Positions 5,649 to 23,625 of a DNA stretch of 64,000 nucleotides are shown here, one piece after another (position 1 is the stretch's first letter; each line of letters begins with the position of its first letter). The stretch is from Chloroflexota bacterium (lineage in GTDB: Bacteria > Chloroflexota > Anaerolineae > JAAYEA01), in the NCBI GenBank assembly GCA_019873665.1, contig JAIOAV010000005.1, forward strand, positions 1 to 64,000, read 5' to 3'. Below the pieces are notes generated by a model. The model was not told the origin of the DNA. It searched no databases and saw only the letters and a list, made by a program, of their open reading frames with translations. Position numbers and translations under genes: made by a program.

Positions 5649-5677
5649 ATTATACTCTCGAACTGCGCTTTGAGCAA
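5649..5677 (-). promoter_or_regulatory. Sigma70-like promoter for xpt-guaA (TTGCTC-17-TATAAT on minus strand)
   Basis: Reverse complement reads ttgctc aaagcgcagttcgagag tataat, ~70 nt upstream of the xpt ATG, with a GGGAGG ribosome-binding site before the start. Confidence 0.5.
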
Positions 5678-5703
5678 GTGAAAAGACGCTCAGGGTATCA
5701 GCT

Positions 5704-5872
5704 GGTAGTATATCCTTTTCGGTAGAAATTGCGAAGGGCAGTGCAAGCCCGAATCGACCTCTCAGCAGACGCTTTACGTGGCCCCAAAGCATCGAATCGG
5801 AGCCAGAAAAAGGCGTTTGGAGCGATTCTGGAGCCGTTTTGGGCGATGATCGACGTCGAGTCTGGGATTTCC
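5704..5872 (+). repeat. Copy A of a ~170-bp conserved intergenic element (three copies in window)
   Basis: ~85% nucleotide identity to 27497-27670 (+) and ~80% to the reverse complement of 14372-14534. Shared core ...gcaagcc(c/a)gaatcg(a/c)cctct(c/g)agcagac(g/a)ctt(t/c)acgtggccc(c/a)aaagcatcgaatcggagccagaaa(a/c)aggcgtttggagcgattctggagccgttt... followed by a GC hairpin. Substitutions do not preserve any reading frame. Confidence 0.8.
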
Positions 5873-5966
5873 CACTGACATCTACCGCTCTGCGCTTGGA
5901 CTTGCCTTGTATGTCAAGCTATGCTATAATGTGTCAAATGGTGCAATCCGATTCAGGGCATGTACT

Positions 5967-6755
5967 ATGAGACGGACTAGACTGGTCTTCTTTATAATAC
6001 TCGCCATCATGCTGTCCATCCTGCTCTTTAGTCACTGGCAGAGGGTGGCCGAGTTTGCTGTTGCCCCGGCGGCAACGACCGTCTCATCTCCCCTGCCGAC
6101 GCCATCACAGGGGCGCAGTAGCGCGCCACTCCCCAGCATCAAGTCAGCATCGCCAGAGGGGGCGCTTTCCGCTGAGGTGCGGGATGTTCTTCCGTTGCGC
6201 ACCTCAATCGGCGCTGTTTACTTTGTGGGGGAGATCGTCAACACGGGTAGTCACCCGATCGCCAAGCCAGAAACGATCATCTCCTTGCTAGACGCCGAGG
6301 GCAAGCGTCTGGCATTTGAGACCGGGTACACGGTGCAAGACATTGTGATGCCGGGCGAGACGGTGCCGGTGACCGTGATCTTCAGCGACCCCCCGGAGAA
6401 TTGGAGCACTTTTGAGGTGTTCCTGCAGGCCAAGGCCAGCACCGGGCGCGAGTTCATGGCCTATACGGCTTTCACGTCGGAGGATACCACGATCAGCAGG
6501 GATGACAACGGTTACTATGTGCTCAGCGGCACGGTGCAGAACACGGGAGAGTCACGAGCTGAGTTTGTCCAGGCTGTGGTTTCCCTCTATGGCGAGGACG
6601 GCAAGATCGTCGGGGTTGGCAGCGCCTACCTGGAGCAAAGCAAGCTGGATGTAGGCGAGCAATCTGCCTTCAGCCTTCGGGTGACGAACCTCGCCGCGGA
6701 ACCCCTCTTCTATCGCATGCAGTTCGTCGGTCACGCCAAGGCATCTACCCCGTGA
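5967..6755 (+). CDS. Hypothetical secreted/membrane-anchored protein with an internal ~100-aa tandem duplication
   Basis: N-terminal TM/signal segment (MRRTRLVFFIILAIMLSILLF), a Ser/Pro-rich linker, then two related domains (…FVGEIVNTGSHPIAKPE… / …LSGTVQNTGESRAEFVQ…). A gctataat -10 box lies ~45 nt upstream. No recognisable family. Confidence 0.5.
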   Translation: MRRTRLVFFIILAIMLSILLFSHWQRVAEFAVAPAATTVSSPLPTPSQGRSSAPLPSIKSASPEGALSAEVRDVLPLRTSIGAVYFVGEIVNTGSHPIAKPETIISLLDAEGKRLAFETGYTVQDIVMPGETVPVTVIFSDPPENWSTFEVFLQAKASTGREFMAYTAFTSEDTTISRDDNGYYVLSGTVQNTGESRAEFVQAVVSLYGEDGKIVGVGSAYLEQSKLDVGEQSAFSLRVTNLAAEPLFYRMQFVGHAKASTP

Positions 6756-6780
6756 TGGTAACGCTTTCGGGCTTCCCGCG

Positions 6781-7257
6781 ATGATCTTGCCTGGTCATCT
6801 GGCGATGGCGATTTTCACCCACAAAGTGACTGGATCTGATTTGCGCACCCTGTTGGCAGCCACGCTGGCGCCTGATGTGGTGGACAAGAGCCTGGCACAG
6901 GTGGTTCATGTCGCGCCGAGCGGCCGGTACGCAATGCATACCGCGCTGGGCTGGCTGATCTCGTCGCTCATCGTGCTCTGGGTGGCGGGAAGGCAGCGCG
7001 CCAGCGCCTGGGCGTTGGGATATCTGGCACATCTACTGGGGGATGGTATGCAGGTCCCCTTTTGGTTGCCATTTCGCCGTTACGATTTCGGCGAGGTGAT
7101 GGAGCTGGATGATTTCCTGTGCGGCGTCCTATCGTCGGCAGAAGGGCGCAAAGGTCTATTGGGAGAGATGTTGCTTCTGGTGTTGGCACTGCTCATGCCT
7201 GCGATGGCGAGAGCGGAATCCGAGCTGTGCCGTAACGAGGCGAACCGGTCTCTGTAA
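6781..7257 (+). CDS. Small membrane protein, possibly a YdjM/DUF457-like metal-dependent hydrolase
   Basis: 158 aa, hydrophobic with His/Asp-containing motifs (APDVVDK, HLLGDG); the family assignment is tentative. Confidence 0.35.
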   Translation: MILPGHLAMAIFTHKVTGSDLRTLLAATLAPDVVDKSLAQVVHVAPSGRYAMHTALGWLISSLIVLWVAGRQRASAWALGYLAHLLGDGMQVPFWLPFRRYDFGEVMELDDFLCGVLSSAEGRKGLLGEMLLLVLALLMPAMARAESELCRNEANRSL

Positions 7258-7310
7258 TCGAAAGCCTCCTCTGGACATAGCCGCAGGAGGCTTTGATCCT
7301 CGCACCCTGC

Positions 7311-8375
7311 CTATAGGATGCCTACTTTGCTGTGATCCCCCAGCACAAGTTTGATCGCCTTGGGCTTGATTGGCGAACGCTTGACCTCCACTGATCGGCC
7401 GATCAAGCTGTTCTCAATCCGCTGCGGGATGTCGATGATCTGGCAGTTCTCCAGGATGATGCTGTGCTCGACCTCGCTCGCCTCGATGGTAGTATGGTGA
7501 TAGATCGAGGTAAAGGGACCGATGTACGAGTTGACGATGCGGCTTTCGCGCCCGATTGCAGCGGGGCCGCGGATGACGCTATTGATGATCTCTGCACCCT
7601 CCTCGATCCATACCTTGCCGTTCACCTCGGAGGCGCTATCCACAAAACCGGCTATCTGAGGGGTCAACTCCTCTAGCAACAGACGATTCGCCTCCAGAAG
7701 ATCCTCCATCTTGCCGGTATCTATCCACCAACCCTCGTGGACGTACGGATAGACCTTGTAGCCCTTTTCCACAAGATACTGGATGGCGTCGGTGATCTCC
7801 AGCTCGTTCCGCCACGAGGGCTTGATGGCGTTGACAGCCTCAAAGATATGGTGATCGAACATATAGATGCCGACCAGCGCATAGTTGCTCTTGGGGACAC
7901 GCGGCTTTTCCTCCAGCCCCACGATGCGGCCGTCGCGAATCTCGGCGACGCCGAACGCGCGCGGATCCTCCACGTGCTTGAGCACGATCTGCGCATTCCA
8001 GGTGTTCTGCGAGAATTGTTTGACCAGTCTCTCGATGCCTCCCTGGATGACATTGTCGCCCAAGAACATGACGAAGGGCTCCTCTCGCAGGTAGTCCTGC
8101 GCGACCTTGACAGCGTGTGCCAGGCCAAGGGGAGCTTCCTGACGGACGTAGGTGATCTTGACTCCCCAGCGCGATCCATCACCCACAGCCGCCTGGATTT
8201 CGGGCGCTGTATCCCCGACTATGATGCCAACATCAGAGATGCCGGCATCACGCACTGCCTCGATCACGCGAAAGAGGACCGGTTTGTTCGCCACCGGCAC
8301 CAGCTGCTTGACGCTGGTATAAGTGATCGGGCGCAGCCGAGTGCCCTTCCCGCCGCTGAGAATCAATGCTTTCAT
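7311..8375 (-). CDS. Sugar-phosphate nucleotidyltransferase (long-form glucose-1-phosphate thymidylyltransferase-like, with C-terminal left-handed beta-helix)
   Basis: N-terminal MKALILSGGKGTRLRPITYTSVKQLVPVANKP matches the G-x-G-T-R-L NTP-transferase signature; ~355 aa indicates the long form with a C-terminal LbH domain. Confidence 0.8.
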   Translation of the reverse strand: MKALILSGGKGTRLRPITYTSVKQLVPVANKPVLFRVIEAVRDAGISDVGIIVGDTAPEIQAAVGDGSRWGVKITYVRQEAPLGLAHAVKVAQDYLREEPFVMFLGDNVIQGGIERLVKQFSQNTWNAQIVLKHVEDPRAFGVAEIRDGRIVGLEEKPRVPKSNYALVGIYMFDHHIFEAVNAIKPSWRNELEITDAIQYLVEKGYKVYPYVHEGWWIDTGKMEDLLEANRLLLEELTPQIAGFVDSASEVNGKVWIEEGAEIINSVIRGPAAIGRESRIVNSYIGPFTSIYHHTTIEASEVEHSIILENCQIIDIPQRIENSLIGRSVEVKRSPIKPKAIKLVLGDHSKVGIL

Positions 8376-8380
8376 CGGAT

Positions 8381-9064
8381 CTACCCCTCTTCGCTCTCCC
8401 CGTAATAGTAACCCATGCGACGATTCAATTCCGCGTTGTTGAGCACTGCGCCGATGATCGGCGCGCTCACCTTGTCCAGTTGCGCCTTGGCGTTTCGCAG
8501 ATCGTCTCGCTTGGTGTGACCCGCACTCGCGACGAGCAGCACACCATCCACACGCGAGGCGAGGATAGAGGCGTCGGTGACAGCCAAAACCGGCGGCGCG
8601 TCAAAAAGGAGGAGATCCGCCCTAGCGAGCAGCGACTCGATGACACGCGCCATACGCTGCGAGCCCAACAGGTCGGGCGGGCGTGGCGGCAGTGGCCCAC
8701 TGGCCAACAGCCACAGCCCCTTGACGCCTGTCTCTTGCAGGGGCGGGTTGGCTAGCGCCTCATCCTCTACCATCATCGTTACCAAGCCAATTTCGCGGCT
8801 TAGGCCAAAGAGCTTGTGCAGCACAGGACGGCGCAGGTCGCAATCCACCATGATCACCCTCTTTTCCGCCTGCGCCATGGTCACAGCGAGATTGGCCAGC
8901 GTCGTGGATTTGCCCTCTTCCGGGCTGGCCGACGTAACAAGAATAGTACGTAAGGGCCGATCCACGCTGGTGAATTGCAGGTTGGTGCGCAGCGTACGAA
9001 ATGCCTCACTGGCCAAGGAGCGGGGATCGGCGATCGTGATCAGCTCACCCTGTTTCTCAGTCAT
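8381..9064 (-). CDS. BY-kinase / CpsD-CapB-type tyrosine autokinase (exopolysaccharide chain-length regulation)
   Basis: Walker A (SASPEEGKSTTLANLA), Walker A'/B-like (VIMVDCDLRRP, LLLFDAPPVL) and C-terminal tyrosine cluster (GYYYGESEEG); start placed at MTEKQGEL rather than the upstream in-frame extension. Confidence 0.8.
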   Translation of the reverse strand: MTEKQGELITIADPRSLASEAFRTLRTNLQFTSVDRPLRTILVTSASPEEGKSTTLANLAVTMAQAEKRVIMVDCDLRRPVLHKLFGLSREIGLVTMMVEDEALANPPLQETGVKGLWLLASGPLPPRPPDLLGSQRMARVIESLLARADLLLFDAPPVLAVTDASILASRVDGVLLVASAGHTKRDDLRNAKAQLDKVSAPIIGAVLNNAELNRRMGYYYGESEEG

Positions 9065-9101
9065 CGTTTCTCCGTTTCCTCCAAATGCGATGCAGCTTGG
9101 G

Positions 9102-9797
9102 TCAGGCGCGTTTTGCCAGACGCCCGCTGCGCGGCGCAGACTCGGCCACGACGGGGATGGCGCCCAACACCGGAACACCGAGATAACGCTCAACATCCTC
9201 CTCCGAACGCACGATGTCCGCCTCCAACCATTCGAGGGCAAAGATGATGATCATCCCCAACAACGCGCCCAAAACGCCACCCGCCAGCACGTTGAACTTG
9301 GTCTTGGGCTTGAAGAGCGAGCCAGGGCGGGCGTAATCGCGCACACTGATCAGCACACGGTCGCGCTGATCGATTACCTGCATCTGCTCTGTGATGTCAA
9401 TGACAAATACATCAGCAGTTTTGTCCGCGATCATCTTGGCCAAGAGGGGGTCATAGTCGTCCACGCTGATCTGGATCAAAAGATCCGACTCGACCGGGTC
9501 CACTGAGATCTTGCTGCGCATCATGTCGGGGGGCATGTCCAGTTGTAGCTCATTGTCCACCCGTTGCAGGATCTTGTCCGAAGTGATCTGCCCGGCATAG
9601 TTGCGCAATTGGTTCTTGATCATTTGCTGCAATCCCCAGTCGGGCCGCGCCGGGATGGCATTCAGGTAGAGCGTAGATCGGTACACGGGACGCTGTAGCT
9701 TGCTAAAAACATACGCGCTGGCAGCCGTGATCACCGCCAAGAGGATGATGATCCAGCCTCTTCTGAGCAGTATTCTGACGTACTCATGGATTTCCAC
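9102..9797 (-). CDS. Wzz/CpsC-like polysaccharide co-polymerase (chain-length determinant) protein
   Basis: N-terminal TM helix after MEIHEYVRILLRRGWIIILLAVI, periplasmic domain, second TM near the C-terminus (VLAGGVLGALLGMIIIFALEWL); adjacent to the BY-kinase as in CpsC/CpsD pairs. Confidence 0.75.
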   Translation of the reverse strand: MEIHEYVRILLRRGWIIILLAVITAASAYVFSKLQRPVYRSTLYLNAIPARPDWGLQQMIKNQLRNYAGQITSDKILQRVDNELQLDMPPDMMRSKISVDPVESDLLIQISVDDYDPLLAKMIADKTADVFVIDITEQMQVIDQRDRVLISVRDYARPGSLFKPKTKFNVLAGGVLGALLGMIIIFALEWLEADIVRSEEDVERYLGVPVLGAIPVVAESAPRSGRLAKRA

Positions 9798-9855
9798 TAT
9801 TCCCTCCTGCGGTACCTGTCATGGTGTATCATGACAGGCTAGACTAGAGATTCTA

Positions 9856-10602
9856 TCACCTGTTATCGCTTTCGCCAAGTAGCTTCAGGAGCATACGCCA
9901 GGAACGAAGTCGCCATCTCCTGGAACGAGGTATCTCGGCGAGAGTTTGCAGTCCCAATGCCTCCAGGTCGCTGCAGCCGTGTACACTGTCGTCAAGATAG
10001 TCCAACAGAAACGCCAGCGCCACACCCGCGACCAGCGCCAGGAAGAGCCGAATCGGCAAGTCCAGCCGTTCGCGCAGGCTGGGGCCCACCATGCCCACCA
10101 CCGGCGGATCAATCAGCGCGACATGCGCGTTCTCCGCGCCCAACTGCGCCAGGAATGTGGCGCTTTCCTCTTGCAGCGTCTGCACAGCGGCGTTGGCGAT
10201 CAGCCGCAACTCTTCCTCCTGTCCCCAGGTGATAGACAGGCTGAGGATGCGATGTAACTTGCCTGCCTGCGTGCTCCCCTGAATGGCGCCGGCGGGAACC
10301 TGTATGCCGTGCATTGCCAGTCGCTGCGAGACGGCGCTGGCAAAGGCGCTGCTGCGCACCACTTCTGCCAGATCATCCACCAGGTACTCGGAGGCCAGCC
10401 ATGTGTAATAGCGATCATAGGTGTAATATGCGCCGGTGCTCGGCTCTGGCACGACGCCAACAGCAAAGCGCATGCCCGCCTGATATACCGCTGGCCTGTC
10501 AGCAAGCAGGCCAGGAAGACTGGCGATGACCACTACGAGTAACAAAAGGGCGATCACCCACCTATGTCGCCATAGGATACGACCGTACGCTTTCAGTTCC
10601 AA
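9856..10602 (-). CDS. Second Wzz-like chain-length determinant protein
   Basis: Same architecture (MELKAYGRILWRHRWVIALLLLVVVIASL ... C-terminal TM LFLALVAGVALAFLL); tandem paralog. Confidence 0.65.
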   Translation of the reverse strand: MELKAYGRILWRHRWVIALLLLVVVIASLPGLLADRPAVYQAGMRFAVGVVPEPSTGAYYTYDRYYTWLASEYLVDDLAEVVRSSAFASAVSQRLAMHGIQVPAGAIQGSTQAGKLHRILSLSITWGQEEELRLIANAAVQTLQEESATFLAQLGAENAHVALIDPPVVGMVGPSLRERLDLPIRLFLALVAGVALAFLLDYLDDSVHGCSDLEALGLQTLAEIPRSRRWRLRSWRMLLKLLGESDNR

Positions 10603-11747
10603 GAGATGCCTCCTTTATGCCTGCTGGCCGCCGCCGTTACATAGTCGGCAAGCTGACTCTTGAAGAGCGCGGTGTCAAAGCGGGCAGCATGACGCTGAAT
10701 GGTGGTGCTATCCCAATGCATCTGCTCCGATCGCCGGATAGCATCAATCAGCGATGCGGCACTCTTTTCCCGGAAAAACAGGCCGGTTACGCCTTCGATC
10801 ACCGTGTCCAACGCGCCGCCTCCCGCATAGGCGATGACGGGGCTGCCCGCAGCCTGCGCTTCGACCGGCGTGATGCCGAAATCCTCCTCCCCGGGAAAGA
10901 CAAAAGCGCGACAGTGCGCGAGCTCTTCCCGCAACTCGGCATCGCTCAGCCGCCCGCGAAAGACGATGTTCGGCTTGGCCATCGCCTGCAGCGCGGCGCG
11001 GTCGCGTCCATCGCCGACGATGTGCAGCGGCAGGCCAAGCTCATTGAACGCTTGCACGGCCAGATCCACCCGTTTGTATGGGATCAAGCGCCCTGCGCTC
11101 AGGTAGTAGTCTCCGCGCTGTGGCGCGGCATAGAAGCGTCGTACGTCCACCGGCGGATAGATGATCTCAGCAGTGCGGCCATAGCACCTGCCGATGCGCT
11201 CGCGCACTGCCTGTGAGATAGCGATAAAGTCGTCAATGCGATCCGCTGCCCTGCGATCCCATCGGCGGAGGCGCGTGATCAGCGGCGGCAACAGCAGTCG
11301 CGCCACTTTCCCCAGCGCCTCGCGCTTCACGTACGTCTCATAATCCCAAAGGAAACGGGCCGGGGTCAGGCAATAGCAGATGTGTCGGGTTTCCGGTGGC
11401 GTCTTGATGCCATGAGCAAAAGCGCTGGTAACGCTCAAGAGCACGTCATAGCCACGCACATCCAGGCGTTCAAAGGCGATCGGATACAGGGGCAGAAACG
11501 GCTGATGATGTGGCTTGACCAACGGCCAGCGATCGAGAAAGGTAGTGCGAATATCCCAGGAGCGGTACGCAGCGGGCAGCGCTTCTGGCCAGTAAATCGA
11601 GGTATAGATTGGCGCCTCCGGGTACATCTCGTGCACCACTTCCAGGACGCGCTCTGCGCCGCCATATTGGTTCAGATACGAACAGGCAATCGCTACCCGT
11701 AACGCCACAGTCTCTTGCTCACCTTGCTCGTCGCTATTTCCCCACAC
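10593..11747 (-). CDS. Glycosyltransferase family 4 (GT-B, group 1)
   Basis: 384 aa with the C-terminal GT4 E-x7-E-type region (FVFPGEEDFGITPVEAQAAGSPVIA). Confidence 0.8.
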   Translation of the reverse strand: MWGNSDEQGEQETVALRVAIACSYLNQYGGAERVLEVVHEMYPEAPIYTSIYWPEALPAAYRSWDIRTTFLDRWPLVKPHHQPFLPLYPIAFERLDVRGYDVLLSVTSAFAHGIKTPPETRHICYCLTPARFLWDYETYVKREALGKVARLLLPPLITRLRRWDRRAADRIDDFIAISQAVRERIGRCYGRTAEIIYPPVDVRRFYAAPQRGDYYLSAGRLIPYKRVDLAVQAFNELGLPLHIVGDGRDRAALQAMAKPNIVFRGRLSDAELREELAHCRAFVFPGEEDFGITPVEAQAAGSPVIAYAGGGALDTVIEGVTGLFFREKSAASLIDAIRRSEQMHWDSTTIQRHAARFDTALFKSQLADYVTAAASRHKGGISWN

Positions 11748-13125
11748 AGAAACGCCGAAAGATCGTGTCCAGTAGATCCTCTGTCGCCGATTCGCCGGTG
11801 ATCTCCCCCAGCGCCGTCACAGCAGCAGTTACGTCAATCGAGACAAAATCCTCGGCCATGCCACGCATGTGTGACTCCTGGGCCGCCCGGACATGCTCCA
11901 GTGCCCGATGCAGGATGGCCTGGTGGCGCGGATTACTCACCAGCGGCGCATCGGATGTGCGCACCTGCCCGGCAAAGATCGCCTCCTCCATGGCCTGCTC
12001 GAGCGTGTCTATCCCCTCGCCGGTCAGTGCGGAGACCGTCACATGCATAGCTTTTGGCAAAAGGGCATCAGTCACGGCGACTGCGGGCAGGTCTGCCTTG
12101 TTGAGCACGAGGATCACTGTCTTGCCGTGCAACAACGCGGCGATCGCCTCGTCGGCGGCGGTCAACGCCTCGCTGCGGTCAACGACGAACAGGACGAGAT
12201 CTGCCTGCTGCAACGCCTGGCGGCTGCGCTCGATGCCCAGTTGCGTGACCAGATCCTCTGTGGCGGCGATGCCGGCGGTATCCACTAGGCAGAGGGGAAT
12301 ACCGCGCAAGTTCAGCCTCTCTTCGAGAGTGTCGCGCGTTGTGCCCGGAATCGGCGCGACGATGGCGCGGCTCGTGCGCAACAGCGCGTTCAGCAGGCTT
12401 GACTTGCCCACATTCGGCCGGCCCACAATCGCCACGCGCACCCCCTGCCGGTAGATGATGCCCTGGCTCGATTGCACGAGGAGCTGCTCCAGTGCCGCCT
12501 CAGCCCTGGCCAGCGGTGGCGCGATGTCCTGATACGGGATGTCGTCCTCCGTGAAATCTATGCTGGCTTCCAGGAAGGCAAGCACCTCCACCAGTTCCTG
12601 TCGCACTACGCGCACTCTATCCGACAGCCGCCCTTCCAGTTGACCTAACGCCATCCGCAGGCTCGCATCGGTCTGCGCACAGATGATGTCCAGCACCGCC
12701 TCCGCCTGCGCCAGGTCGAGACGCCCATTAAGAAAAGCGCGCAGGGTGAACTCGCCCGGCTCGGCCAGCCGCGCGCCCTGGCGCAACGCCAGCAGCAGGA
12801 TGCGCCGCAGCGGGACGATGCCGCCGTGACAGTTGATCTCGACGACATCCTCCCGTGTATACGAGTGCGGCGCCCGCATATAGGACGCCAGAACCTCGTC
12901 CAGAGTTTCCCCAGTCGCCGGATCAACCACGCGCCCATAACGGAGTCGGTATGGCTCAATCGCCGGCACAGCGTTCCCTTTCTTGCCACGCCGTAGGACA
13001 CGGCGCAAGATGGCAAGCGCATCCGGCCCGCTAAGGCGAACGATGCCGATTCCTCCCTCGCCGATGGGCGTGGAGATCGCGACGATGGTGTCATTCAGCA
13101 CGGGCATGCGATTCCGCCAATTCAC
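11734..13125 (-). CDS. mnmE: tRNA modification GTPase MnmE (TrmE)
   Basis: N-terminal folate-binding domain (DTIVAISTPIGEGGIGIVRLSG), G-domain (GRPNVGKSSLLNAL, DTAG) and C-terminal CxGK motif (RFCVGK). Confidence 0.9.
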   Translation of the reverse strand: MNWRNRMPVLNDTIVAISTPIGEGGIGIVRLSGPDALAILRRVLRRGKKGNAVPAIEPYRLRYGRVVDPATGETLDEVLASYMRAPHSYTREDVVEINCHGGIVPLRRILLLALRQGARLAEPGEFTLRAFLNGRLDLAQAEAVLDIICAQTDASLRMALGQLEGRLSDRVRVVRQELVEVLAFLEASIDFTEDDIPYQDIAPPLARAEAALEQLLVQSSQGIIYRQGVRVAIVGRPNVGKSSLLNALLRTSRAIVAPIPGTTRDTLEERLNLRGIPLCLVDTAGIAATEDLVTQLGIERSRQALQQADLVLFVVDRSEALTAADEAIAALLHGKTVILVLNKADLPAVAVTDALLPKAMHVTVSALTGEGIDTLEQAMEEAIFAGQVRTSDAPLVSNPRHQAILHRALEHVRAAQESHMRGMAEDFVSIDVTAAVTALGEITGESATEDLLDTIFRRFCVGK

Positions 13126-14311
13126 CGATCAACATACAAGGCCCATGTACCGTCTGCGTGAGAAAGAGAATGCACGTCTGACTTCCTGACAGCTTGAGCC
13201 CCTTCCGAAAGGTCTCTGGCTCCACCGGAAAGCCCCTCTTTTTGACCACCAGCTCTCCCACGTCTAACGCGTGCAGGCGTTCCTTGAGCAGGCGTAGGCT
13301 GAAGCGGTGCGCCTCAAGAATACGATAGCCCTTGGCAAAGGGCGTCTGCACTAGGTGGTCGCCAACCAGATAGGCGATATCCGGATGGATCTTGGCCAGA
13401 CCTAACTGCCGCGCCAGCGGCTGAACCAGATGGGCGCGGATCACCGCGGCATCCGGCTCATAAAGATAGCGCTGTGGCTCGACGACGGGCACGGAGGCGA
13501 CATCTTCATCGTCAATGAGCGTTGCCTCTTGCGGCAGGAGCGTCGCACGACGCGCGCACGTCCGAAAACGCCCCAGCCAGAGGATCGCCTCTTTGCAGGT
13601 TCCCTTCTCCGAAATGAACTCGACCTCGCAATCAAGCCCCAGCTGGTCTAGCTCATCGTAATCCACGCCGGGTGATATCTTGACGGCGATATCCGGCGTC
13701 TCGCGCCTCAGCTCGCGCAGCACGGTGAGTGGCGGATCGTAGCGAAAGATGGAGAAGGCACGCCGCTCTTCCGCCCGCCGCGAGGGATCCAGATACAGGG
13801 CCGGGAGCGCGGAGAGGCGCAGCGTGCGCCAGTCCGCGCAGACCGGCCACATGGCCTCCGAGCGACCACCGGCGGCGACATTGGCTACCGCTATCCGGAG
13901 ACGCAGCTCATCCCGCTCGATGGCCATCACCTGCGTTACCTGGCTCAGCGCCATTGTGTCGCCGCCGATCCCACATCCCAGCTCTCCCAGCCTGGAGACA
14001 GACGCCAGCCGCTGGGCGCGGTAGCGCGCGACGGCGTCGCCGCTGGCCTGCTCCAGCGCCTCACGCGTCAGGTAGAGCCGATCGGCGCAGGCGAACTTGA
14101 CGGCCGCCCGCTGGCGGAGCAGCGCCGTCTCCAGTGCCGCCGCGGCGTGATCCCTGCCATACGCGGCGCGCAGCCGTTCCAGCCAGCGCAGGCGATCGCC
14201 CTCTCGGATCTGCTCGCCGGCGAGTTGCTGCAGCGCGGCAGCGCCCTGGGGCGACTGGAGCCAATCAAGGTCAGCCAGAGTCATCTGATATGCCATATCC
14301 ACACCGCCCAT
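13091..14311 (-). CDS. Class I SAM-dependent methyltransferase with a C-terminal THUMP-like/uncharacterised domain
   Basis: SAM-binding motif I (LGCGIGGD); ~400-aa two-domain protein; the start may be the second Met (MAYQM). Confidence 0.55.
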   Translation of the reverse strand: MGGVDMAYQMTLADLDWLQSPQGAAALQQLAGEQIREGDRLRWLERLRAAYGRDHAAAALETALLRQRAAVKFACADRLYLTREALEQASGDAVARYRAQRLASVSRLGELGCGIGGDTMALSQVTQVMAIERDELRLRIAVANVAAGGRSEAMWPVCADWRTLRLSALPALYLDPSRRAEERRAFSIFRYDPPLTVLRELRRETPDIAVKISPGVDYDELDQLGLDCEVEFISEKGTCKEAILWLGRFRTCARRATLLPQEATLIDDEDVASVPVVEPQRYLYEPDAAVIRAHLVQPLARQLGLAKIHPDIAYLVGDHLVQTPFAKGYRILEAHRFSLRLLKERLHALDVGELVVKKRGFPVEPETFRKGLKLSGSQTCILFLTQTVHGPCMLIGELAESHARAE

Positions 14312-14371
14312 ATTTTACGGTTTTGCAGGCAAAATCCCAAACCAGCCATCCGACGGGTAGCATGTAAATAA

Positions 14372-14534
14372 GTCCCGGACTTACCTCGGTCGTCGCCAAA
14401 AACAGCTCCTGAATCGCTCCCAACGCCTGTTTCTGGCTCCGATTCGATGCTTTGGTGCCATGTGAAGCGTTTGCTCAGAGGGCGATTCCGGCTTGCACTG
14501 CCCTTTGCGCAATCTCCACCGAAAAGTATATCGC
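14372..14534 (-). repeat. Copy C (inverted orientation) of the ~170-bp conserved intergenic element
   Basis: Reverse complement aligns with copies A and B across the whole core (…cagtgcaagccggaatcgccctctgagcaaacgcttcacatggcaccaaagcatcgaatcggagccagaaacaggcgttgggagcgattcaggagctgtttttggcgacgaccgaggtaagtccgggact…). It lies immediately 5' of the minus-strand methyltransferase gene. Confidence 0.8.
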
Positions 14535-14610
14535 AGTTTGCCTAATCGGCAGGATTATGCTATAATTACTATTTGTGGCATGTGCATTACCGGAAAGGCG
14601 GTGAAGTGCG

Positions 14611-14970
14611 ATGGTGGATCTTCTCTCCTCTGTGGAGCAGCAGTACAAATCTGAGAAGGAAATACCTGATCTGCGACCTGGCGATACAGTCCGCGTCCAT
14701 AATCGCATTGTGGAAGGCGAGCGTGAGCGCGTTCAAGTCTTTCAAGGAACGTTGATGCGGCATCGGCATGGGGGCCTGAACGAGACGATTACGGTACGGC
14801 GTATCGCCTCCAATGGTGTGGGTGTGGAGCGTACCTTTCTCCTGAATTCACCTTCAGTGGAAAAAGTCGAGATCATGCGCCACGCCAAGACGCGACAGGC
14901 CCAGCTCTATTTTCTACGGGATCGGCGTGGCAAGTCGGCGCGTATCAAAGAGAACCGGTCGCGCGAGTAG
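14611..14970 (+). CDS. rplS: 50S ribosomal protein L19
   Basis: 119-aa protein with conserved L19 core (…RPGDTVRVHNRIVEGERERVQVFQGTLM…VRRIASNGVGVERTF); gctataat -10 box ~50 nt upstream. Confidence 0.9.
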   Translation: MVDLLSSVEQQYKSEKEIPDLRPGDTVRVHNRIVEGERERVQVFQGTLMRHRHGGLNETITVRRIASNGVGVERTFLLNSPSVEKVEIMRHAKTRQAQLYFLRDRRGKSARIKENRSRE

Positions 14971-15001
14971 GACGCGCGCGGCATCGTCCCGGAGACATGA
15001 G

Positions 15002-15026
15002 GCGCAGGCGCAGACCTGCGCTTTTT
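15002..15026 (+). terminator. Probable rho-independent terminator/attenuator after rplS
   Basis: GC stem gcgcagg / cctgcgc followed by ttttt, between rplS and rnhB. Confidence 0.45.
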
Positions 15027-15042
15027 CGTCTGGAAACGGCGG

Positions 15043-15729
15043 ATGCAGATTCCTACCCTGGCTGTCGAGCGATCGCTATTCGCAGATGGGTATCACTGGA
15101 TTGCGGGCATTGACGAGGTAGGCCGTGGCGCGTGGGCTGGCCCAGTGGTTGCGGCCGCAGTTATCCTGCCAGTGCAAGAGCAGACACTCATCGCCGATCT
15201 GGCAGGAGTGCGCGACTCCAAGTTGCTGACCCCGGCTCAGAGACACTCTCTCGCGCAGCGTATTCGCGCACAAGCCCTCACCGTGGGGACTGGCATGGTC
15301 TCACATAGCGAGATCGATGCACACGGCATTGTCGCGGCGACACGCCGGGCGATGCTGCTCGCGCTGGCCGCCCTGCCTTTCCAGCCCGACTATCTGGTGA
15401 TAGACGCGCTGACTCTGCCGGGCTGTCCGATCGCACAGATGGCGATCATCCACGGGGACGCGCGCTGCCTCAGCGTCGCTGCGGCCTCCATTATCGCCAA
15501 GGTGACGCGCGACAACTGGATGGTCGGGCAGGATAGTGCCTATCCAGGCTATGGCTTTGCGCAGCACAAGGGCTATGGCACGCGCGCACATCAGAGCGCG
15601 TTAGCCCGGTTGGGGCCGACCACTATCCACCGCCGCTCTTTTGCTCCTCTCCGCCACTACCTGTCGGCGCAAGGTGAGCACTGTGACACCTCATCAGATG
15701 CCAGCCTCATCAGTGGCGGACGCGAGTAG
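15043..15729 (+). CDS. rnhB: Ribonuclease HII
   Basis: N-terminal catalytic motif IAGIDEVGRGAWAGPVVAAAVIL (D-E-D-D family); classical rplS-rnhB linkage. Confidence 0.9.
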   Translation: MQIPTLAVERSLFADGYHWIAGIDEVGRGAWAGPVVAAAVILPVQEQTLIADLAGVRDSKLLTPAQRHSLAQRIRAQALTVGTGMVSHSEIDAHGIVAATRRAMLLALAALPFQPDYLVIDALTLPGCPIAQMAIIHGDARCLSVAAASIIAKVTRDNWMVGQDSAYPGYGFAQHKGYGTRAHQSALARLGPTTIHRRSFAPLRHYLSAQGEHCDTSSDASLISGGRE

Positions 15730-15911
15730 AATCCCTGACTTTGGGCCACTGCCGCGCATGGCAGCAGCCCAGAGAATTGGCGTTGCGCCGCGATGATGGA
15801 CTTGTGGCGAATTTCGTGGTATTATATGCACCATCTACAGACCAAGCATTGATAATGCTCTGTTGTGAGCATCCCGCCGTTGATCGCCCTTGACCGATCA
15901 GGAGCAGCGTT

Positions 15912-17480
15912 ATGCTAAAGCCCTTGCGTGTCCTTTTGGGCAGCCTCCTTGTCATAACCGCATTTCTGCTGACACCCTGGCAGATCAGTTACGTTGTCCT
16001 CAGTGCATTTCTACTCTGGCTGGTCTCAAGCTTTGCGCCTCGCCGCTACAAGCGTCATTTCTTCCTCGCCTGGTGCGTCGTGTTCATCACGCTCTTCGTC
16101 AGCACCGTGCTACAATCCATTCTCATTCGGCACCGTGGCTTCCAGAGCCTGCTGCAACGCTTCCCTATCCTCGATCTGCTGGCGGGCGGCCCTTATAAGC
16201 TCGGCTTTTGGGCGGCCCTCGCCGGCCTGGTGATCGCCATCGTCGCCGTCTGGGTTGCGCTGCAGGCGCTGGCATTTGTCAGCGCGGAATGGGTTCTGAA
16301 TCTGAGCAGCGGATTGCAGATTGACGCGAAACAAGCGCGCAAGTACGTGTGGGACCTCATCCTACAGCAACACCTCCCCTCGGTGATTGTGGATAGCGGG
16401 CAGGCCATAACCCAGTCGCCGGCAGGTATCCTCAATCGGTTGGGAGGACCTGGCCTGCTCATCATACGGCCAGGGAATGCTGTCATCGTTGAGTCCGCAG
16501 ACGGCACAGTGGAAATTCACGGGCCGGGCACGGCTCCCCTCAAGCGTCTGGCAAAGATCAAGGAAGTGGTTGATCTTCGCCCACAGGAAGAGGCTATCAC
16601 GGTGACCGAGGTGCTCACTAAGGAGCGGATCCCGCTCAAGTTCCAGCTCAATGCCATCTTTCAGATCGAGCCGAAAGCAGACACCGATTCCCGGCCCGCG
16701 GCTCTGACAGAGCGCAAGCACGTGGAGGGCACGATCAGCGGCCCATATGCTGTTTACAAGGAGACGGTGTTCAAGGCGGGTTACCAAGCGGCCCATGCGG
16801 GATGGAAGGCGGAGACGATCCAGGCCATTTCCGCCGCGCTAAGAGATATCGTCTTTGGGCACAGCATCGAAGAGATATACCACACACCTGTGGCCACGCT
16901 GGCTGAGAGCCGGTATGTTGGCACGGGCACCCCAGAAAAGAGCCAGATTATCTCATCGTTGGAACAAGCGCTCCAGCAACAGCTAGCGGCCGTCACCCCG
17001 GCCTGGGGCGTGCGTATCGCGAGCATTGACATCGCCACCATCGAGGCCCCAGCCGAGATCTACCAGACGATCTTGACCTGGTGGCAGAAAAAGTGGGAAG
17101 TCGAGATCGCCAAGCAGGATGCGACAAAGGAAGCCACGCTGATGATGGAACGTGCCGCCGCGCGCCGGGATGCCTTCATGTACGAGACGGAGGGGGAGGC
17201 CCTGGCCCGTGCCCAGTGGCTGCGCGAGATTCTGCCGGTGCTCCTCAAGGACAACCAGACTCTCGATAACCGCAGCGTGGTCGAACTGCTGCGCGAGCTG
17301 ATCTCTCCCGGCAAAGGCCGCACCATCGAGCAGCCAAAGCAAGCGCCGCAACTGACACAGCCCGCTCCTACTGTCCCCATGTCCGCCGACGGCGCACAGC
17401 AGGCAGCGTCACCAGCCCCACCACCAGAGACATCTGCAGAGCAGCCAAAGGCTGAACCAGGGAGCAAGAAGGAGGAGTGA
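15912..17480 (+). CDS. SPFH/Band-7 domain membrane protein with long C-terminal extension
   Basis: N-terminal TM helices, SPFH-like core (…LLIIRPGNAVIVESADGTVEIHGPG…ITVTEVLTKERIPLKFQLNAIFQIEP…), coiled-coil and Pro/Ala-rich acidic tail. Confidence 0.65.
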   Translation: MLKPLRVLLGSLLVITAFLLTPWQISYVVLSAFLLWLVSSFAPRRYKRHFFLAWCVVFITLFVSTVLQSILIRHRGFQSLLQRFPILDLLAGGPYKLGFWAALAGLVIAIVAVWVALQALAFVSAEWVLNLSSGLQIDAKQARKYVWDLILQQHLPSVIVDSGQAITQSPAGILNRLGGPGLLIIRPGNAVIVESADGTVEIHGPGTAPLKRLAKIKEVVDLRPQEEAITVTEVLTKERIPLKFQLNAIFQIEPKADTDSRPAALTERKHVEGTISGPYAVYKETVFKAGYQAAHAGWKAETIQAISAALRDIVFGHSIEEIYHTPVATLAESRYVGTGTPEKSQIISSLEQALQQQLAAVTPAWGVRIASIDIATIEAPAEIYQTILTWWQKKWEVEIAKQDATKEATLMMERAAARRDAFMYETEGEALARAQWLREILPVLLKDNQTLDNRSVVELLRELISPGKGRTIEQPKQAPQLTQPAPTVPMSADGAQQAASPAPPPETSAEQPKAEPGSKKEE

Positions 17481-18244
17481 TGTCCACAGCAAGCCCTTCC
17501 CCTCGAAAAGCGGAAACGGCAGCGAAGGAAGCGCCAGTGCCCAGCTATTTCCAGACGATCCTGGGCCAGATCAGCATTCTCACACTCCTTCTGCCGCTAG
17601 CGCCCATCCTGCCTGACATGGGACGCAAGACAACCGTTATGGCCGAGGTCATCTGCGCGCTGGTGTTCATTTTCCTCTACAAGCAACGCCGCTCGCTATA
17701 CGAGGGGGAGCTGCGCAAGAGCGTCCGTGGCGCTGCGGGGATGAGCGTGAGGACGATCGCGATCCTAGCACTTGCTGCGGCCATGGTGGTGGGCTTCTTT
17801 CTGGCTTCAGACGGCGCAGTCTACCTGAAGCAAATCCTGCCCACCGTTCTCGTGAGCAAGTTCATCGTCCCACCCTTGCAGATGTTCACCTTTGCCGGGG
17901 TGACCTTCGCCTTTGCCACGATGGCCGCTCTCGATTATATGGCCAAGCTAGAGGAGGCAGGACAATATCCCCGGCCAGATTACCTGCGAGAAGACGCGGA
18001 TCTTCCCACACTAGCCGCCAAGGTCCTGCGCGCCAACCTGAAGATCCCGGATGGAATCGAGTGGAAAATCGTGGAGCGCGAAAAGACACGTAGCGGCGGT
18101 GCCAAGCTGGTCATCGCGTGGACAGAAGAGGTCGTGCGGACAACCTCAAAGGGCGAGATGGTCAAACTTGTACAGGAGAAGCGATACAGGGTCGAACTCG
18201 GCGTGAAGGGGCAGATCATCTCCTTTGCGGAGATCACGACATGA
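17477..18244 (+). CDS. Hypothetical integral membrane protein (translationally coupled to the SPFH gene)
   Basis: GTGATG stop/start overlap with the upstream gene; 4 predicted TM helices; no family assignment. Confidence 0.5.
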   Translation: MMSTASPSPRKAETAAKEAPVPSYFQTILGQISILTLLLPLAPILPDMGRKTTVMAEVICALVFIFLYKQRRSLYEGELRKSVRGAAGMSVRTIAILALAAAMVVGFFLASDGAVYLKQILPTVLVSKFIVPPLQMFTFAGVTFAFATMAALDYMAKLEEAGQYPRPDYLREDADLPTLAAKVLRANLKIPDGIEWKIVEREKTRSGGAKLVIAWTEEVVRTTSKGEMVKLVQEKRYRVELGVKGQIISFAEITT

Positions 18245-18284
18245 TACGAGAGCAGGTCAAAGCAAGCTATAGGAAGGACGGGCC

Positions 18285-19211
18285 ATGAGCGTACCTCGTA
18301 TAGTCGTTATCGGCGCTGCCACCCTCGACATCAAGGGAAAGGCCAAGAAGGCATTGCTGCCGCTAACCTCGAACCCCGGGGACATTCATTTTGGCCCAGG
18401 TGGCGAGGCGCGGAACATCGCTGAGAACCTGGCCCGCCTTGGCCTAGAGACGATCTTGCTCTCCGCGGTGGGACAGGACAGCATTGGGGCCACTATCATC
18501 GCCGACACGGCAGCGGCAGGGGTTGATATCAGCCGCGTGATCCAGAGCGAAACGCACCGCTCATCTACTTATCTGGCGGTGCTGGACGATTCCGGAGCGC
18601 TGGCGATCTCCATCGAGGATATGGCGGCGCTCGAACTGATACGGCCACAGTTCATTTTCCAGCACCGAAGCTGCTTTGCGGGTGCAGCTATGATCGTCAT
18701 AGACGCGAACCTGTCGGAACGCACGATACAGTCAATCCTGCGCATTGCAGAACGATATCGCGTGCCGGTGGCGGCAAACACAGTCTCGGTGGGGTTGGCA
18801 CCGCGTCTGCGCTCTTTCCTCCCGCGGCTGAGCATCCTAACCGCCAACGCCACCGAGGCCTCGGCGCTGTTGAATGAGCGGATCAGCAACACCAGAGAGG
18901 CGCAAGCCATGGCACAGCGTCTTGTCGCGATGGGTGTTGGCACCGTCATCATCACACTCGCTGACAGGGGACTATGCTATGCCACCTCGCGTGAGAGCGG
19001 CTACATGCCGGCGATCCGGTGCGATGTGGTGGATTATACCGGTGCCGGCGCTGCTCTGATGGCGGCGGTGATCTATGGCATCGTCAACGCATTTCCCATC
19101 AATGAGGCGATGCGGCTTGGCGTCTCGGCGGCGACGCTCACGCTCAAATGTCCGGAAACGGTGAGCAAAGAGATGAGCCTCGACAGTCTGTATAACGCAT
19201 TGGTGATATAA
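18285..19211 (+). CDS. psuK: PfkB-family carbohydrate kinase, probable pseudouridine kinase
   Basis: PfkB signatures (IGAATLDIKG…, C-terminal DTTGAGD-like VVDYTGAGAALMAAV); immediately upstream of psuG with a 3-nt gap. Confidence 0.7.
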   Translation: MSVPRIVVIGAATLDIKGKAKKALLPLTSNPGDIHFGPGGEARNIAENLARLGLETILLSAVGQDSIGATIIADTAAAGVDISRVIQSETHRSSTYLAVLDDSGALAISIEDMAALELIRPQFIFQHRSCFAGAAMIVIDANLSERTIQSILRIAERYRVPVAANTVSVGLAPRLRSFLPRLSILTANATEASALLNERISNTREAQAMAQRLVAMGVGTVIITLADRGLCYATSRESGYMPAIRCDVVDYTGAGAALMAAVIYGIVNAFPINEAMRLGVSAATLTLKCPETVSKEMSLDSLYNALVI

Positions 19212-19213
19212 GG

Positions 19214-20137
19214 ATGACAACAGTGCGAATGATGCGTAGCAGCGAGGTGCAAGCCGCCATGGCTGCAGGGGCGGCGATCGTGGCGCTCGAGTCGAATGTG
19301 ATCTCGAGCGGGCTGCCCTATCCCGAGAACATCGCCACAGCATACAAAGTGGAGCAGGCAATTCGCGACGCTGGCGCCGTGCCTGCGACTATTGCGGTGC
19401 TCCACGGCCAGATCAAGGTGGGGCTGACGGGAGACGAGATCGAATACCTCGGCACAGCGCGTGGCACGCGCAAGATGAGCCGGCGCGATCTACCCCTGGC
19501 GCTGGCACAGGCATGGAGTGGTGGCACCACGGTGGCAGCCACCATGCTCCTCGCTCACCGGGCAGGGATCCGTGTTTTCGCCACCGGCGGCATCGGCGGC
19601 GTGCATCGTGGGCAGCCTTTGGATGTCTCCGCCGATCTGCCCGAGCTGGCCCAGACGCCGGTCCTGGTGGTTTGCTCCGGCGCCAAGGCGATCTTGGACC
19701 TGCCGCTGACGCTGGAGTGGCTGGAAACGCACGGCGTGCCAGTGATCGGATTTGGCACATCCGAGTTCCCCTCTTTCTACAGCCGCCATAGCGGGCTGGG
19801 GGTAGACGTGCGTGTGGATCAGCCTGAAGAGGCAGCAAACATCTTTCGGGCGCAGCGGGCGCTGGGCATGAGTACCGCCCTGCTGGTGACGGTGCCAGTG
19901 CCGGCCGATGTGGAGCTGGATCACGTGCAAATGGAGCAGGCGATCAACGCCGCACTGGGGGAGGCCGCAGCCGCAGGAGTCAGCGGCAAAGCACTGACAC
20001 CCTTCCTCCTCTCTCGTGTGGCTGGCCTCACTGCGGGCGCTAGCCTGCGAGCAAATGTGGCGCTATTGGAGAATAACGCACGCGTGGCCGCGACCATCGC
20101 CGCTGCGCTGCAGTCGGGAGCGGCGAATGAAATCTGA
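19214..20137 (+). CDS. psuG: Pseudouridine-5'-phosphate glycosidase
   Basis: 307 aa, YeiN/PsuG-like throughout (…VALESNVISSGLPYPENI…ATGGIGGVHRG…VLVVCSGAKAILD…). Confidence 0.85.
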   Translation: MTTVRMMRSSEVQAAMAAGAAIVALESNVISSGLPYPENIATAYKVEQAIRDAGAVPATIAVLHGQIKVGLTGDEIEYLGTARGTRKMSRRDLPLALAQAWSGGTTVAATMLLAHRAGIRVFATGGIGGVHRGQPLDVSADLPELAQTPVLVVCSGAKAILDLPLTLEWLETHGVPVIGFGTSEFPSFYSRHSGLGVDVRVDQPEEAANIFRAQRALGMSTALLVTVPVPADVELDHVQMEQAINAALGEAAAAGVSGKALTPFLLSRVAGLTAGASLRANVALLENNARVAATIAAALQSGAANEI

Positions 20138-20792
20138 CGCCTGGGCGCTGATTCTTTCGTACATCTATGTTTTTGCCGTCATCCTGTGCGGCGAAGGGCT
20201 GCGCCGTTGGCGGCGCTATTCCGTTGATTTCACGCGCAAATTCATCCACGTCGGCGTCGGCCTATGGAGCATCGGCACCGTCGCGCTATTCCAGAATCGT
20301 TATCTGGCGATGATCCCGCCCCTTTCCTTCGTTGTCATCAACTATATCTCTTACCGGCGCGAGACCTTCAAGGCAATGGAAACCGGAGAGCCTGGCAACC
20401 TGGGCACCGTCTATTTCCCTGTCTCCTTTGCCGTGTTGATCCTCTGGTTCTGGGGGCAGCCGGCGCTGCTCGTGGCGAGCCTCATGCCGATGACGCTTGG
20501 CGACGCCGCAGCTGCCCTGGTCGGCGAACGCTTTGGCCATCACCGCTTCCGTGTATTCGGCAGTCAAAAAAGCTGGGAGGGGAGCATTGCCATGTTCCTG
20601 GTAAGCTCTCTGGCCATATGGATCACGCTGAGGATCATGTCCGCCGCAGGGTGGGCGATCAACCTGTGGCTCGCTGCCATCGTCGCCCTTGCGGCTACTG
20701 CTGTGGAAGCCTTCACTCCATGGCGCATGGACAACCTGACTGTGCCATTCGTATCCGCGCTCGTCCTGGCGTTGCAGTCCGCCGTGCGCTAG
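20127..20792 (+). CDS. Polyprenol/phytol/dolichol-kinase-family (CTP-dependent) membrane protein
   Basis: Multi-TM 221-aa protein with RKxxH-type motif (TRKFIHVGVG) and an LGD…ERFG segment typical of the dolichol kinase/VTE5/CdsA superfamily; start overlaps the psuG stop (ATGAAATCTGA). Confidence 0.5.
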   Translation: MKSDAWALILSYIYVFAVILCGEGLRRWRRYSVDFTRKFIHVGVGLWSIGTVALFQNRYLAMIPPLSFVVINYISYRRETFKAMETGEPGNLGTVYFPVSFAVLILWFWGQPALLVASLMPMTLGDAAAALVGERFGHHRFRVFGSQKSWEGSIAMFLVSSLAIWITLRIMSAAGWAINLWLAAIVALAATAVEAFTPWRMDNLTVPFVSALVLALQSAVR

Positions 20793-20813
20793 AGAACTCT
20801 GGGGAACGCCGGA

Positions 20814-20842
20814 TTTGCTGCCAAAGCTGAATAGTGCTATAA
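20814..20842 (+). promoter_or_regulatory. Sigma70-like promoter for rpsO (TTGCTG-17-TATAAT)
   Basis: ttgctg ccaaagctgaatagtgc tataat ~80 nt upstream of the rpsO ATG. Confidence 0.5.
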
Positions 20843-20924
20843 TTGCCAATCGGAGAAACTGCGCATTCTGCTATTCGCCAACAAGCTCCAGATGACGACT
20901 GATTCGAGCAGAAAGGAAGTACAT

Positions 20925-21194
20925 ATGCCTTTGTCCACCGAGCAAAAGATGACCATCATTCAGGAGTATCATCTGCACCAATCAGATACCGGCTCTCCGG
21001 AAGTGCAGATTGCTCTGCTCACGCGGCGGATTAGCGACCTGACGGAACACCTGAAGATCCACAAGCACGATGAACACTCGCGGCGCGGGCTGATCAAGTT
21101 GGTGGGGCAGCGGCGTCGGCACTTGAACTACCTCAGCCAGAAAGACGTGAACCGATATCGTGAGATCGTGGCACGGCTTGGCCTGCGCAAGTAG
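20925..21194 (+). CDS. rpsO: 30S ribosomal protein S15
   Basis: MPLSTEQK… with conserved [13 protein letters not shown]…HDEHSRRGL…; RBS gaaaggaag; start chosen at the internal Met of the longer ORF. Confidence 0.9.
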
Positions 21195-21224
21195 GCGATC
21201 GTTCACCTGAGACGTCTGAACAGC

Positions 21225-21262
21225 GAGTAGATGGTGAGATCACTCTCCATCTACTCGTTTGG
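21225..21262 (+). terminator. rpsO terminator/read-through hairpin in the rpsO-pnp intergenic leader
   Basis: 10-bp stem gagtagatgg…ccatctactc followed by gtttgg; a second long hairpin (gagtgagc…gctcactc, 21328-21365) lies in the pnp leader. Confidence 0.45.
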
Positions 21263-23604: not shown

Positions 23605-23625
23605 ACCCATCTGGAGAAGGGAAGG

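Follow-up and report, generated by a model that had tools for sequence, protein, structure and literature searches.

The non-coding repeat described here, which occurs in three copies, very probably represents a new family of non-autonomous MITEs whose copies inserted between divergent promoters and then apparently became substrates for recombination. It was identified in a window of 64,000 nucleotides (64 kb), i.e., the whole stretch of Chloroflexota DNA that was analysed. Prokaryotic MITEs are defined by features including small size (about 50–500 bp), terminal inverted repeats (TIRs), a target-site duplication (TSD) and the lack of a transposase gene, and they are known to take part in recombination and in mobilising the DNA they flank (PMC10969869). 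The element matches this definition in its size of 182–194 bp, its TIRs (copy B), its 8-bp TSDs, the lack of a transposase gene and its presence or absence at orthologous sites. A candidate regulatory RNA or regulatory platform is thereby struck from the list and a mobile element put in its place. Moreover, a MITE family is added for the uncultured Anaerolineae-like Chloroflexota, the group to which the organism is assigned by its RpoD homologues and whose mobile elements are poorly described; a search of the literature returned no MITE description for this group. The locus also provides a worked example of MITE copies apparently reshaping the order of core genes (neighbourhood of rplS, rpsO, pnp, trmE and rpoD), in which the swapped duplications are still readable. 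The element itself is ordinary in kind and modestly interesting, and it offers one testable lead, namely promoter-distance targeting.

Copies, ends and empty sites in relatives

The initial annotation had listed three copies of a conserved element, and these were confirmed at the places given there by blastn and by alignment of the copies, which are designated A, B and C:

5704-5886, + strand: copy A, 183 bp, 53% GC; left end GGTAGTATATCC intact; right end ...ACATCTACC degenerate, with a 7-nt deletion relative to B
27497-27690, + strand: copy B, 194 bp, the most intact copy
14356-14537, - strand: copy C, 182 bp, inverted relative to A and B; right end ...CATGCTACC retained; first 6 nt of the left end unrecognisable

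Identities determined by blastn amounted to 89.4% over 160 nt for A/B, 85.3% over 163 nt for A/C and 85.9% over 149 nt for B/C, with pairwise E-values ranging from 1e-45 to 1e-57. The 21-mer GCATCGAATCGGAGCCAGAAA occurs exactly three times in the window, compared with no occurrence in 100 shuffles. The number of element copies seen in 64 kb is three, since the search of the window yielded neither a fourth copy nor any other notable repeat. The GC content of the copies is 53–56% versus 62% for the window. Regarding the extents given previously, the locations were correct, but the 3' side fell approximately 15–20 nt short, as deduced from comparison with empty sites and from the terminal repeats. 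Similarly, the long invariant core described earlier is invariant in its first block (24 nt) but shows three differences in copy C within its second block.

Conservation is higher in the middle of the element than towards its termini: among the three copies, the best 56-column window contains five variable columns (p about 5e-5 by permutation, a value inflated by clustered indels). The pattern usually seen in MITEs is thus reversed, the centre being better conserved than the TIRs. Conservation of the centre may originate from gene conversion tied to recombination events or may mark a functional site.

Outside the window, 185,579 GTDB genomes were scanned with exact 20-mers and JGI metagenomes with exact 18-mers; the matches returned (3 and 17, respectively) are due to chance, since none of them extends beyond 20–26 nt. 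PLSDB plasmids searched by distant blastn with copy B gave no match. Furthermore, an nhmmer profile built from the three copies and run against 31 loci recovered nothing except the window and unitig L006, which is identical to it, and a fuzzy TIR search in the loci of relatives revealed no further copies.

Related loci were recovered via RpoD and the DUF3426 protein. Two of these, L004 (ENA ERZ4756918) and L005 (JGI 3300027914), are 85–87% identical to the window at the DNA level and 96–97% identical in the amino acid sequence of RpoD. In both, the phosphoribosyltransferase (PRTase) gene and rpoD are direct divergent neighbours, and the element is absent. Positions 5229–5236 of L005 align by blastn to both 5695–5702 and 27691–27698 of the window; hence, the interval 5703–27690 (21,988 bp) is extra in the window and carries an 8-bp duplication on either side. 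Locus L012 (ENA ERZ4756917; 86.5% nucleotide identity) is collinear with window positions 5898–14343 and then jumps to 27490–25118. Here, the methyltransferase and amidase genes are divergent neighbours with 140 bp between them, and the junction contains the single 8-mer GCCTGCCG, while the window has ATCCGACG twice, once beside the right end of C and once beside the left end of B. The methyltransferase|amidase adjacency without the element was also found in the more distant loci L007–L010 (methyltransferase 57–59% identical). In summary of the orthologous intergenic regions, the element is not present in those of L004, L005, L010, L011 and L012. An outgroup (RpoD 75%) harbours a peptidase M1 gene upstream of rpoD and is uninformative regarding the polarity of the PRTase|rpoD adjacency. 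As judged from these sequence comparisons, the copies were inserted after the split from the approximately 86%-identical relatives, at the PRTase|rpoD site (t1) and the amidase|methyltransferase site (t2). The duplicated target sequences are as follows:

5695-5702, + strand: TSD t1, left copy, GTATCAGC, followed by one extra T at 5703
27691-27698, + strand: TSD t1, right copy, GCATCAGC; relatives have a single GCATCGGC
27489-27496, + strand: TSD t2 adjoining the left end of B, CGTCGGAT
14348-14355, - strand: TSD t2 adjoining the right end of C, CGTCGGAT on the minus strand; a single 8-mer in L012

The halves of t2 agree at all eight positions and those of t1 at seven of eight (G[T/C]ATCAGC). 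None of the three copies is enclosed by its own matching TSD pair; the duplications are visible only as swapped between copies, A-left corresponding to B-right (t1) and B-left to C-right (t2) in element orientation.

Four element ends were fixed to the base by means of the empty sites (left of A, left of B, right of B and right of C), and all four read GGTAG or GGTGG inward; the termini of the element are 5'-GGTAG...CTACC-3'. Considering all ends, GGTAG or GGTGG is found at five of six. In copy B, the left inverted repeat (IRL, 27497–27528) and the reverse complement of the right one (IRR, 27659–27690) match at 22 of 32 positions in an ungapped comparison; among 200,000 random 32-mers taken from the window, six showed at least 21 matches to IRL. 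The TIRs are clear in B only and weak in A and C, and the two inner ends in the present arrangement, A-right and C-left, are degraded.

The initial annotation had proposed a check for TSDs at the copy boundaries, and the 8-bp duplications are indeed present, verified against the empty sites in relatives. TSDs in combination with TIRs, an outcome set beforehand as refuting a regulatory platform or a small RNA (sRNA), were found. The third possibility considered at that time, a MITE-like repeat, is supported by the TSDs, the TIRs and the empty sites.

As a separate observation, L012:1-764, located upstream of the DUF3426 gene, contains the end of a different but related repeat (...GGATATACC, ending at L012:764). 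The reverse complement of this repeat end, GGTATATCCTTTGATACGGAAATTC, matches the left inverted repeat of the window element at 12 of 12 positions over GTATATCCTTTG; beyond the terminal ~25 nt, L012:1-764 and the window element share no significant similarity. Two small ORFs called in L012:1-764 are without Pfam match, and the region encodes no Pfam-recognisable transposase. The start of the Logan unitig L013 (L013:1-31) lies within the repeat end, at a distance of exactly 30 nt (k-1, if k = 31), which indicates that the L012-type repeat is multi-copy in that genome. The parent IS might have its tail here, or the sequence might belong to a longer derivative.

Flanking promoters and readings as RNA or regulatory module

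According to the Pfam annotation of neighbouring genes, all three copies are located in divergent intergenic regions:

Copy A: between the PRTase gene (- strand, start 5580) and the divergent gene for the DUF3426 protein (start 5967)
Copy C: between rplS (start 14611) and the divergent gene for a THUMP-like SAM methyltransferase (- strand, start about 14296-14311)
Copy B: between the gene for an N-acetylmuramoyl-L-alanine amidase (- strand, start 27407) and the divergent rpoD (start 27961, taken from the database RpoD P0001, 425 aa)

It had been pointed out previously that each copy has the same orientation relative to the gene behind it. This is true yet uninformative, since in divergent regions either orientation has a co-oriented gene downstream and the argument therefore carries no weight. 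The following promoters were predicted by a promoter scan:

27706-27734, + strand: rpoD promoter, TTGACA-17-TATAAT, 15 bp past the right end of B; identical in the element-free L005
27454-27481, - strand: amidase promoter, TTGCCT-16-TACAAT, 15 bp past the left end of B
14312-14340, - strand: methyltransferase promoter, TTGGGA-17-TAAAAT, 15 bp past the right end of C
5902-5930, + strand: promoter of the DUF3426 gene, TTGCCT-17-TATAAT, 15 bp past the right end of A; kept in L011, L012 and L013
14538-14566, + strand: rplS promoter, TTGCCT-17-TATAAT, directly next to the degenerate left end of C

The -10 box noted earlier just downstream of each copy was thus seen again, but is explained by insertion of the element upstream of existing promoters. 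None of the flanking promoters is part of the element, and they are conserved in element-free relatives, which means that the element is not needed for them. In L005, for example, the PRTase and rpoD promoters are positioned back to back, 32 bp apart, and the element is absent. A dispersed regulatory platform is therefore not supported, as the orthologous promoters of relatives lack the element and possess the same -35/-10 boxes.

Tightly packed divergent promoter pairs seem to be typical of the lineage, the -35 hexamers being 32 bp apart for PRTase/rpoD (window 5660–5705 / 27690–27740; L005:5183-5272) and 22 bp apart for amidase/methyltransferase.

The earlier statement that no reading frame is preserved between the copies proved correct. 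In the longest shared open frame, 3, 5 and 6 substitutions fall on codon positions 1, 2 and 3, respectively (hand count), and a protein-coding reading of this frame was rejected since substitutions show no third-position bias. The open frames of the copies are broken by a 2-nt indel and by a stop in B.

It is highly improbable that the element represents an sRNA gene or a cis-acting leader of the riboswitch or attenuator type which was duplicated upstream of three genes. The single-sequence fold of copy B is somewhat more stable than that of shuffled sequences (z = -2.8), and a long-range 10-bp pairing, CCAGAATCGC/GCGATTCTGG, as well as a perfect hairpin in B would be in line with an RNA. However, the reverse strand folds about equally (z = -2.7), and similar folding of both strands is expected of a sequence with inverted repeats. 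The hairpin, previously described as perfect, is real in B (27630–27658, 12 bp) but decays in A and C without compensation. Within the CCAGAATCGC/GCGATTCTGG helix, the one position at which both arms vary has A-T in copy B, C/T in copy A and G/A in copy C. The check for compensatory changes suggested in the initial annotation gave 0 of 44 compensatory pairs in the consensus fold, several pairs being broken (three sequences, low power), whereas the rpoD leader, which was used as a control with identical procedure and sequence number, yielded compensatory changes in 9 of 75 pairs.

Further results likewise argue against an RNA. The recommended comparison with Rfam produced no family match: for Rfam 15, nothing was detected in the whole window at gathering thresholds and nothing in the region of copy A at E<=10, and the sole match in the region of copy B, 15.8 bits to the Brucella sRNA CI414 versus a threshold of 270 bits, is meaningless. 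Scans of the regions of the three copies revealed neither a terminator-like site nor a conserved upstream promoter. Since the element is located upstream of the promoters of the downstream genes, it lies outside their 5' UTRs. Moreover, it is missing from the orthologous loci of relatives. An upstream-encoded sRNA is accordingly not supported by covariation, Rfam match or terminator.

The rpoD leader used as control is an observation in its own right. It comprises approximately 220 nt of 5' leader (window 27741–27960, from the promoter at 27706–27734 to the start at 27961) and is conserved in two relatives. Alignment with L005:5279-5525 and L004:9672-9925 and folding by RNAalifold predicted the 75 pairs, the 9 compensatory ones showing double changes among three sequences. 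No Rfam match was obtained for this leader. The primary sigma factor gene may thus be preceded by a structured leader, for which this region is the candidate.

A MITE by origin may nonetheless have been exapted as a candidate promoter-associated module that alters expression of the flanking genes, e.g., as an outward promoter, as an insulator or spacer between divergent promoters, or through a protein-binding site in the conserved centre. Such exaptation is considered improbable. It would fit the location of every copy between divergent promoters, the four ends placed exactly 15 bp from a -35 hexamer, and the better conservation of the central ~56 nt relative to the ends. In addition, the left end of copy A features an outward-facing promoter-like site, TTCGCA-17-TATACT, and MITEs with sigma-70-like promoters are documented (PMC10969869). 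However, this outward site fails the scan in B and C, native promoters are unchanged in element-free relatives and, with three copies, the conserved centre may equally represent gene conversion accompanying recombination. Under the preferred MITE assignment, the copies would resemble one another because they descend from a common mobile master, and not because an RNA or a regulatory site is under selection.

Gene order between the copies and the assembly question

Comparison of the window with its relatives delimits two rearranged intervals:

5703-27690: 22-kb block, 21,988 bp, bounded by the direct copies A and B and by TSD t1
14538-27488: inverted segment, 12.95 kb, relative to L012 and more distant relatives, with end points exactly at C and B

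The 22-kb block is situated within what is, in relatives, the 32-bp spacer between the -35 boxes of PRTase and rpoD. It contains core genes only, including rplS, rnhB (RNase HII), rpsO, pnp (PNPase), lepB (signal peptidase), trmE and the genes for DHO dehydrogenase and D-Tyr deacylase. Neither transposase nor integrase was found in the block by Pfam annotation, and none of the 36 large ORFs of the window encodes a corresponding domain. Gene order in the block otherwise matches L012. In L011, the neighbour found at the DUF3426 end of the block is a peptidase M28 gene. Swapped TSDs are the classical footprint of recombination between copies, and the synteny with relatives agrees with this. Based on these sequence comparisons, the copies apparently served as break points for gene-order rearrangements; the history is read from one MAG contig and assumes its correct assembly.

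According to the proposed course of events, a DDE-type transposase acting in trans (none is encoded in the window) would move the element and duplicate 8 bp of the target, and the parent IS would carry GGTAGTATATCCTTTGCGGTGGAAA-like inverted repeats together with such a DDE transposase. Insertion took place within the short distances that separate the -35 boxes of back-to-back promoters, and the pre-existing promoters stayed intact. The copies would then have constituted portable homology, and recombination between inverted copies would have flipped 14538–27488, thereby swapping t2 between B and C. The block bracketed by two direct copies may have reached t1 by transposing as one unit with the use of its outer ends, i.e., as a MITE-flanked composite transposon, or alternatively by excision of a circle and re-integration through homologous recombination. 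The simplest order of events would be insertion of one copy into t2, arrival of the block at t1 and, finally, inversion between the t2 copy and the copy on the rpoD side.

For a composite transposon, the relevant features are that A and B are direct copies, that GTATCAGC and GCATCAGC flank 5703–27690 and that relatives possess a single 8-mer. Composite transposition and homologous recombination give an identical end product, and the structure is thus equally explained by either. Both MITE-flanked mobilisation and MITE-mediated recombination are documented (PMC10969869).

It is unlikely that, with the MITE insertions being real, the swapped TSDs, the 22-kb translocation and the 13-kb inversion are assembly artefacts that arose because the assembly path switched copies three times. 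The true genome would then be collinear with relatives (PRTase-element-rpoD and methyltransferase-element-amidase), with switches at the shared 32-nt core. Biologically, such a rearrangement-free genome is the most parsimonious one; the window originates from a metagenome-assembled contig, and the repeat coincides with all three break points. The sole independent sequence is L006, a 1.4-kb Logan unitig (SRR16606022) that corresponds to window 13003–14451 with 100% identity and ends at the 32-nt core of B and C; it therefore cannot link the two halves of copy C. The stop of this unitig at the shared core is repeat behaviour in assemblies and was counted for the MITE reading. On the other hand, an artefact needs three consecutive wrong joins within 22 kb, the path returning to the other half of t1, and the copies differ by 11–15% on both sides of the 32-nt core. 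De Bruijn assemblers with k > 32, or read pairs, should resolve such copies. Furthermore, repeat-mediated inversion with swapped TSDs is a classical and common outcome of recombination between IS or MITE copies. Chimerism of the contig is accordingly unlikely, and the assignment as a MITE is independent of the assembly question. For users of MAGs, it is of relevance that the repeat breaks unitigs and could mislead synteny analyses.

The 22-kb block with direct repeats at its bounds and an empty site in relatives also resembles a genomic island at 5703–27690, with A and B as attL and attR. The probability of this is negligible: the empty site holds no repeat copy, whereas attB should hold one, and the island was rejected on this basis. 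Moreover, the block comprises only core genes that are syntenic elsewhere in relatives (rplS, rpsO, pnp, lepB, trmE), no integrase is present, an 8-bp duplication flanks the block and a third, inverted copy lies inside it. A 22-kb circular replicon, implied if C-left and A-right were a true TSD pair, was rejected as well; the two flanks have only CTGCG in common, and the block carries essential chromosomal genes.

Known systems and the spacing to -35 boxes

The element was compared with prokaryotic MITEs, namely Correia/CREE of Neisseria, ERIC, Chunjie, MITEAba12 and Sulfolobus SM1-4 (PMC10969869). Like these, it is shorter than 500 bp, possesses TIRs and a TSD, lacks a transposase gene and occurs in several intergenic copies. 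Further shared properties are an AT content higher than that of the host genome, a hairpin-prone transcript and presence/absence between relatives (PMC10969869). In contrast, it has no sequence similarity to them, as no Rfam, plasmid, genome or metagenome match was obtained, and the TSD of Correia elements is TA versus 8 bp in the Chloroflexota element.

For the 22-kb block, the nearest match is provided by MITE-flanked composite transposons, i.e., 439-bp MITEs around class 1 integrons in Acinetobacter, and by integron mobilisation units (PMC10969869). In both cases, two direct copies bracket a segment, a TSD surrounds the unit and the unit is absent in relatives. Unlike a resistance integron, however, the cargo here consists of 22 kb of chromosomal housekeeping genes, and the flanking copies are only 89% identical. 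The inverted segment resembles rearrangements mediated by IS or MITE copies, such as those between strains of Porphyromonas gingivalis (PMC2575886), in which inverted copies are likewise located at the ends of inverted segments and halves of duplications are exchanged. Compared with these and other IS inversions, the copies in the window are only ~183–194 bp long and now 86% identical; the 32-nt identical core may mark the crossover or a conversion tract.

As regards the parent, IS families with 8-bp duplications and inverted repeats starting with GG are IS1, IS6, IS256, ISL3 and IS1595 (ISfinder descriptions). The ends of IS1, GGTGATG/GGTAATG, resemble the element in the 8-bp TSD and the GGT(A/G) start, but the TIR likeness is too short for family assignment.

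In a more distant relative (RpoD 75%), an ISAs1-type transposase gene (domains DDE_Tnp_1_assoc and DDE_Tnp_1; L033:6750-7880) adjoins a PolX gene downstream of rpoD. This indicates that the rpoD neighbourhood attracts mobile elements in the group.

The positions of the element ends relative to the promoters follow a regular pattern. Four ends (A-right, B-right, B-left and C-right) are exactly 15 bp away from a -35 hexamer, corresponding to the 8-bp target plus 7 bp. At t2, a gap of 22 bp separates the -35 boxes, with the target exactly in its middle (7 + 8 + 7); the corresponding gap at t1 measures 32 bp, and here 7 bp lie between the target and the rpoD box. The 15-bp spacing recurs at three separate sites, namely those of rpoD, methyltransferase/amidase and DUF3426, and in every case it is the right end that points toward the promoter. 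The related repeat end in L012 (...ATTTCCGTATCAAAGGATATACC) stops 16 bp from the homologous -35 box, as read by eye. A target at this position would correspond to roughly -44 to -51, the UP-element/alpha-CTD zone.

A transposase that selects a fixed site, an 8-bp target exactly 7 bp upstream of the -35 hexamer, might account for this spacing and would make the element a promoter-tracking MITE, although this is rather doubtful. Alternatively, the spacing could result from survivorship, i.e., persistence only of those insertions that spared both promoters. The pattern at three independent sites is consequently treated as a lead and not as a result. If true, it would describe a promoter-tracking bacterial MITE, pairs of which could transport long stretches of core genes, each arriving with the promoters at its two edges intact. 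Should the 15-bp spacing be upheld in further copies, this would suggest that targets are chosen by reference to promoters, which would be of real mechanistic interest.

Finally, an observation apart from the element concerns a 1214-aa ORF on the - strand of the window (48654–52298). It comprises a serine hydroxymethyltransferase domain (aa 100–437) and a glycine-cleavage T-protein domain (aa 799–1076) and is located near two genes for glycine dehydrogenase (P-protein) subunits (42179–45144). The ORF is either a fusion of glyA and gcvT or a pair of genes that share one frame with no stop codon between them.
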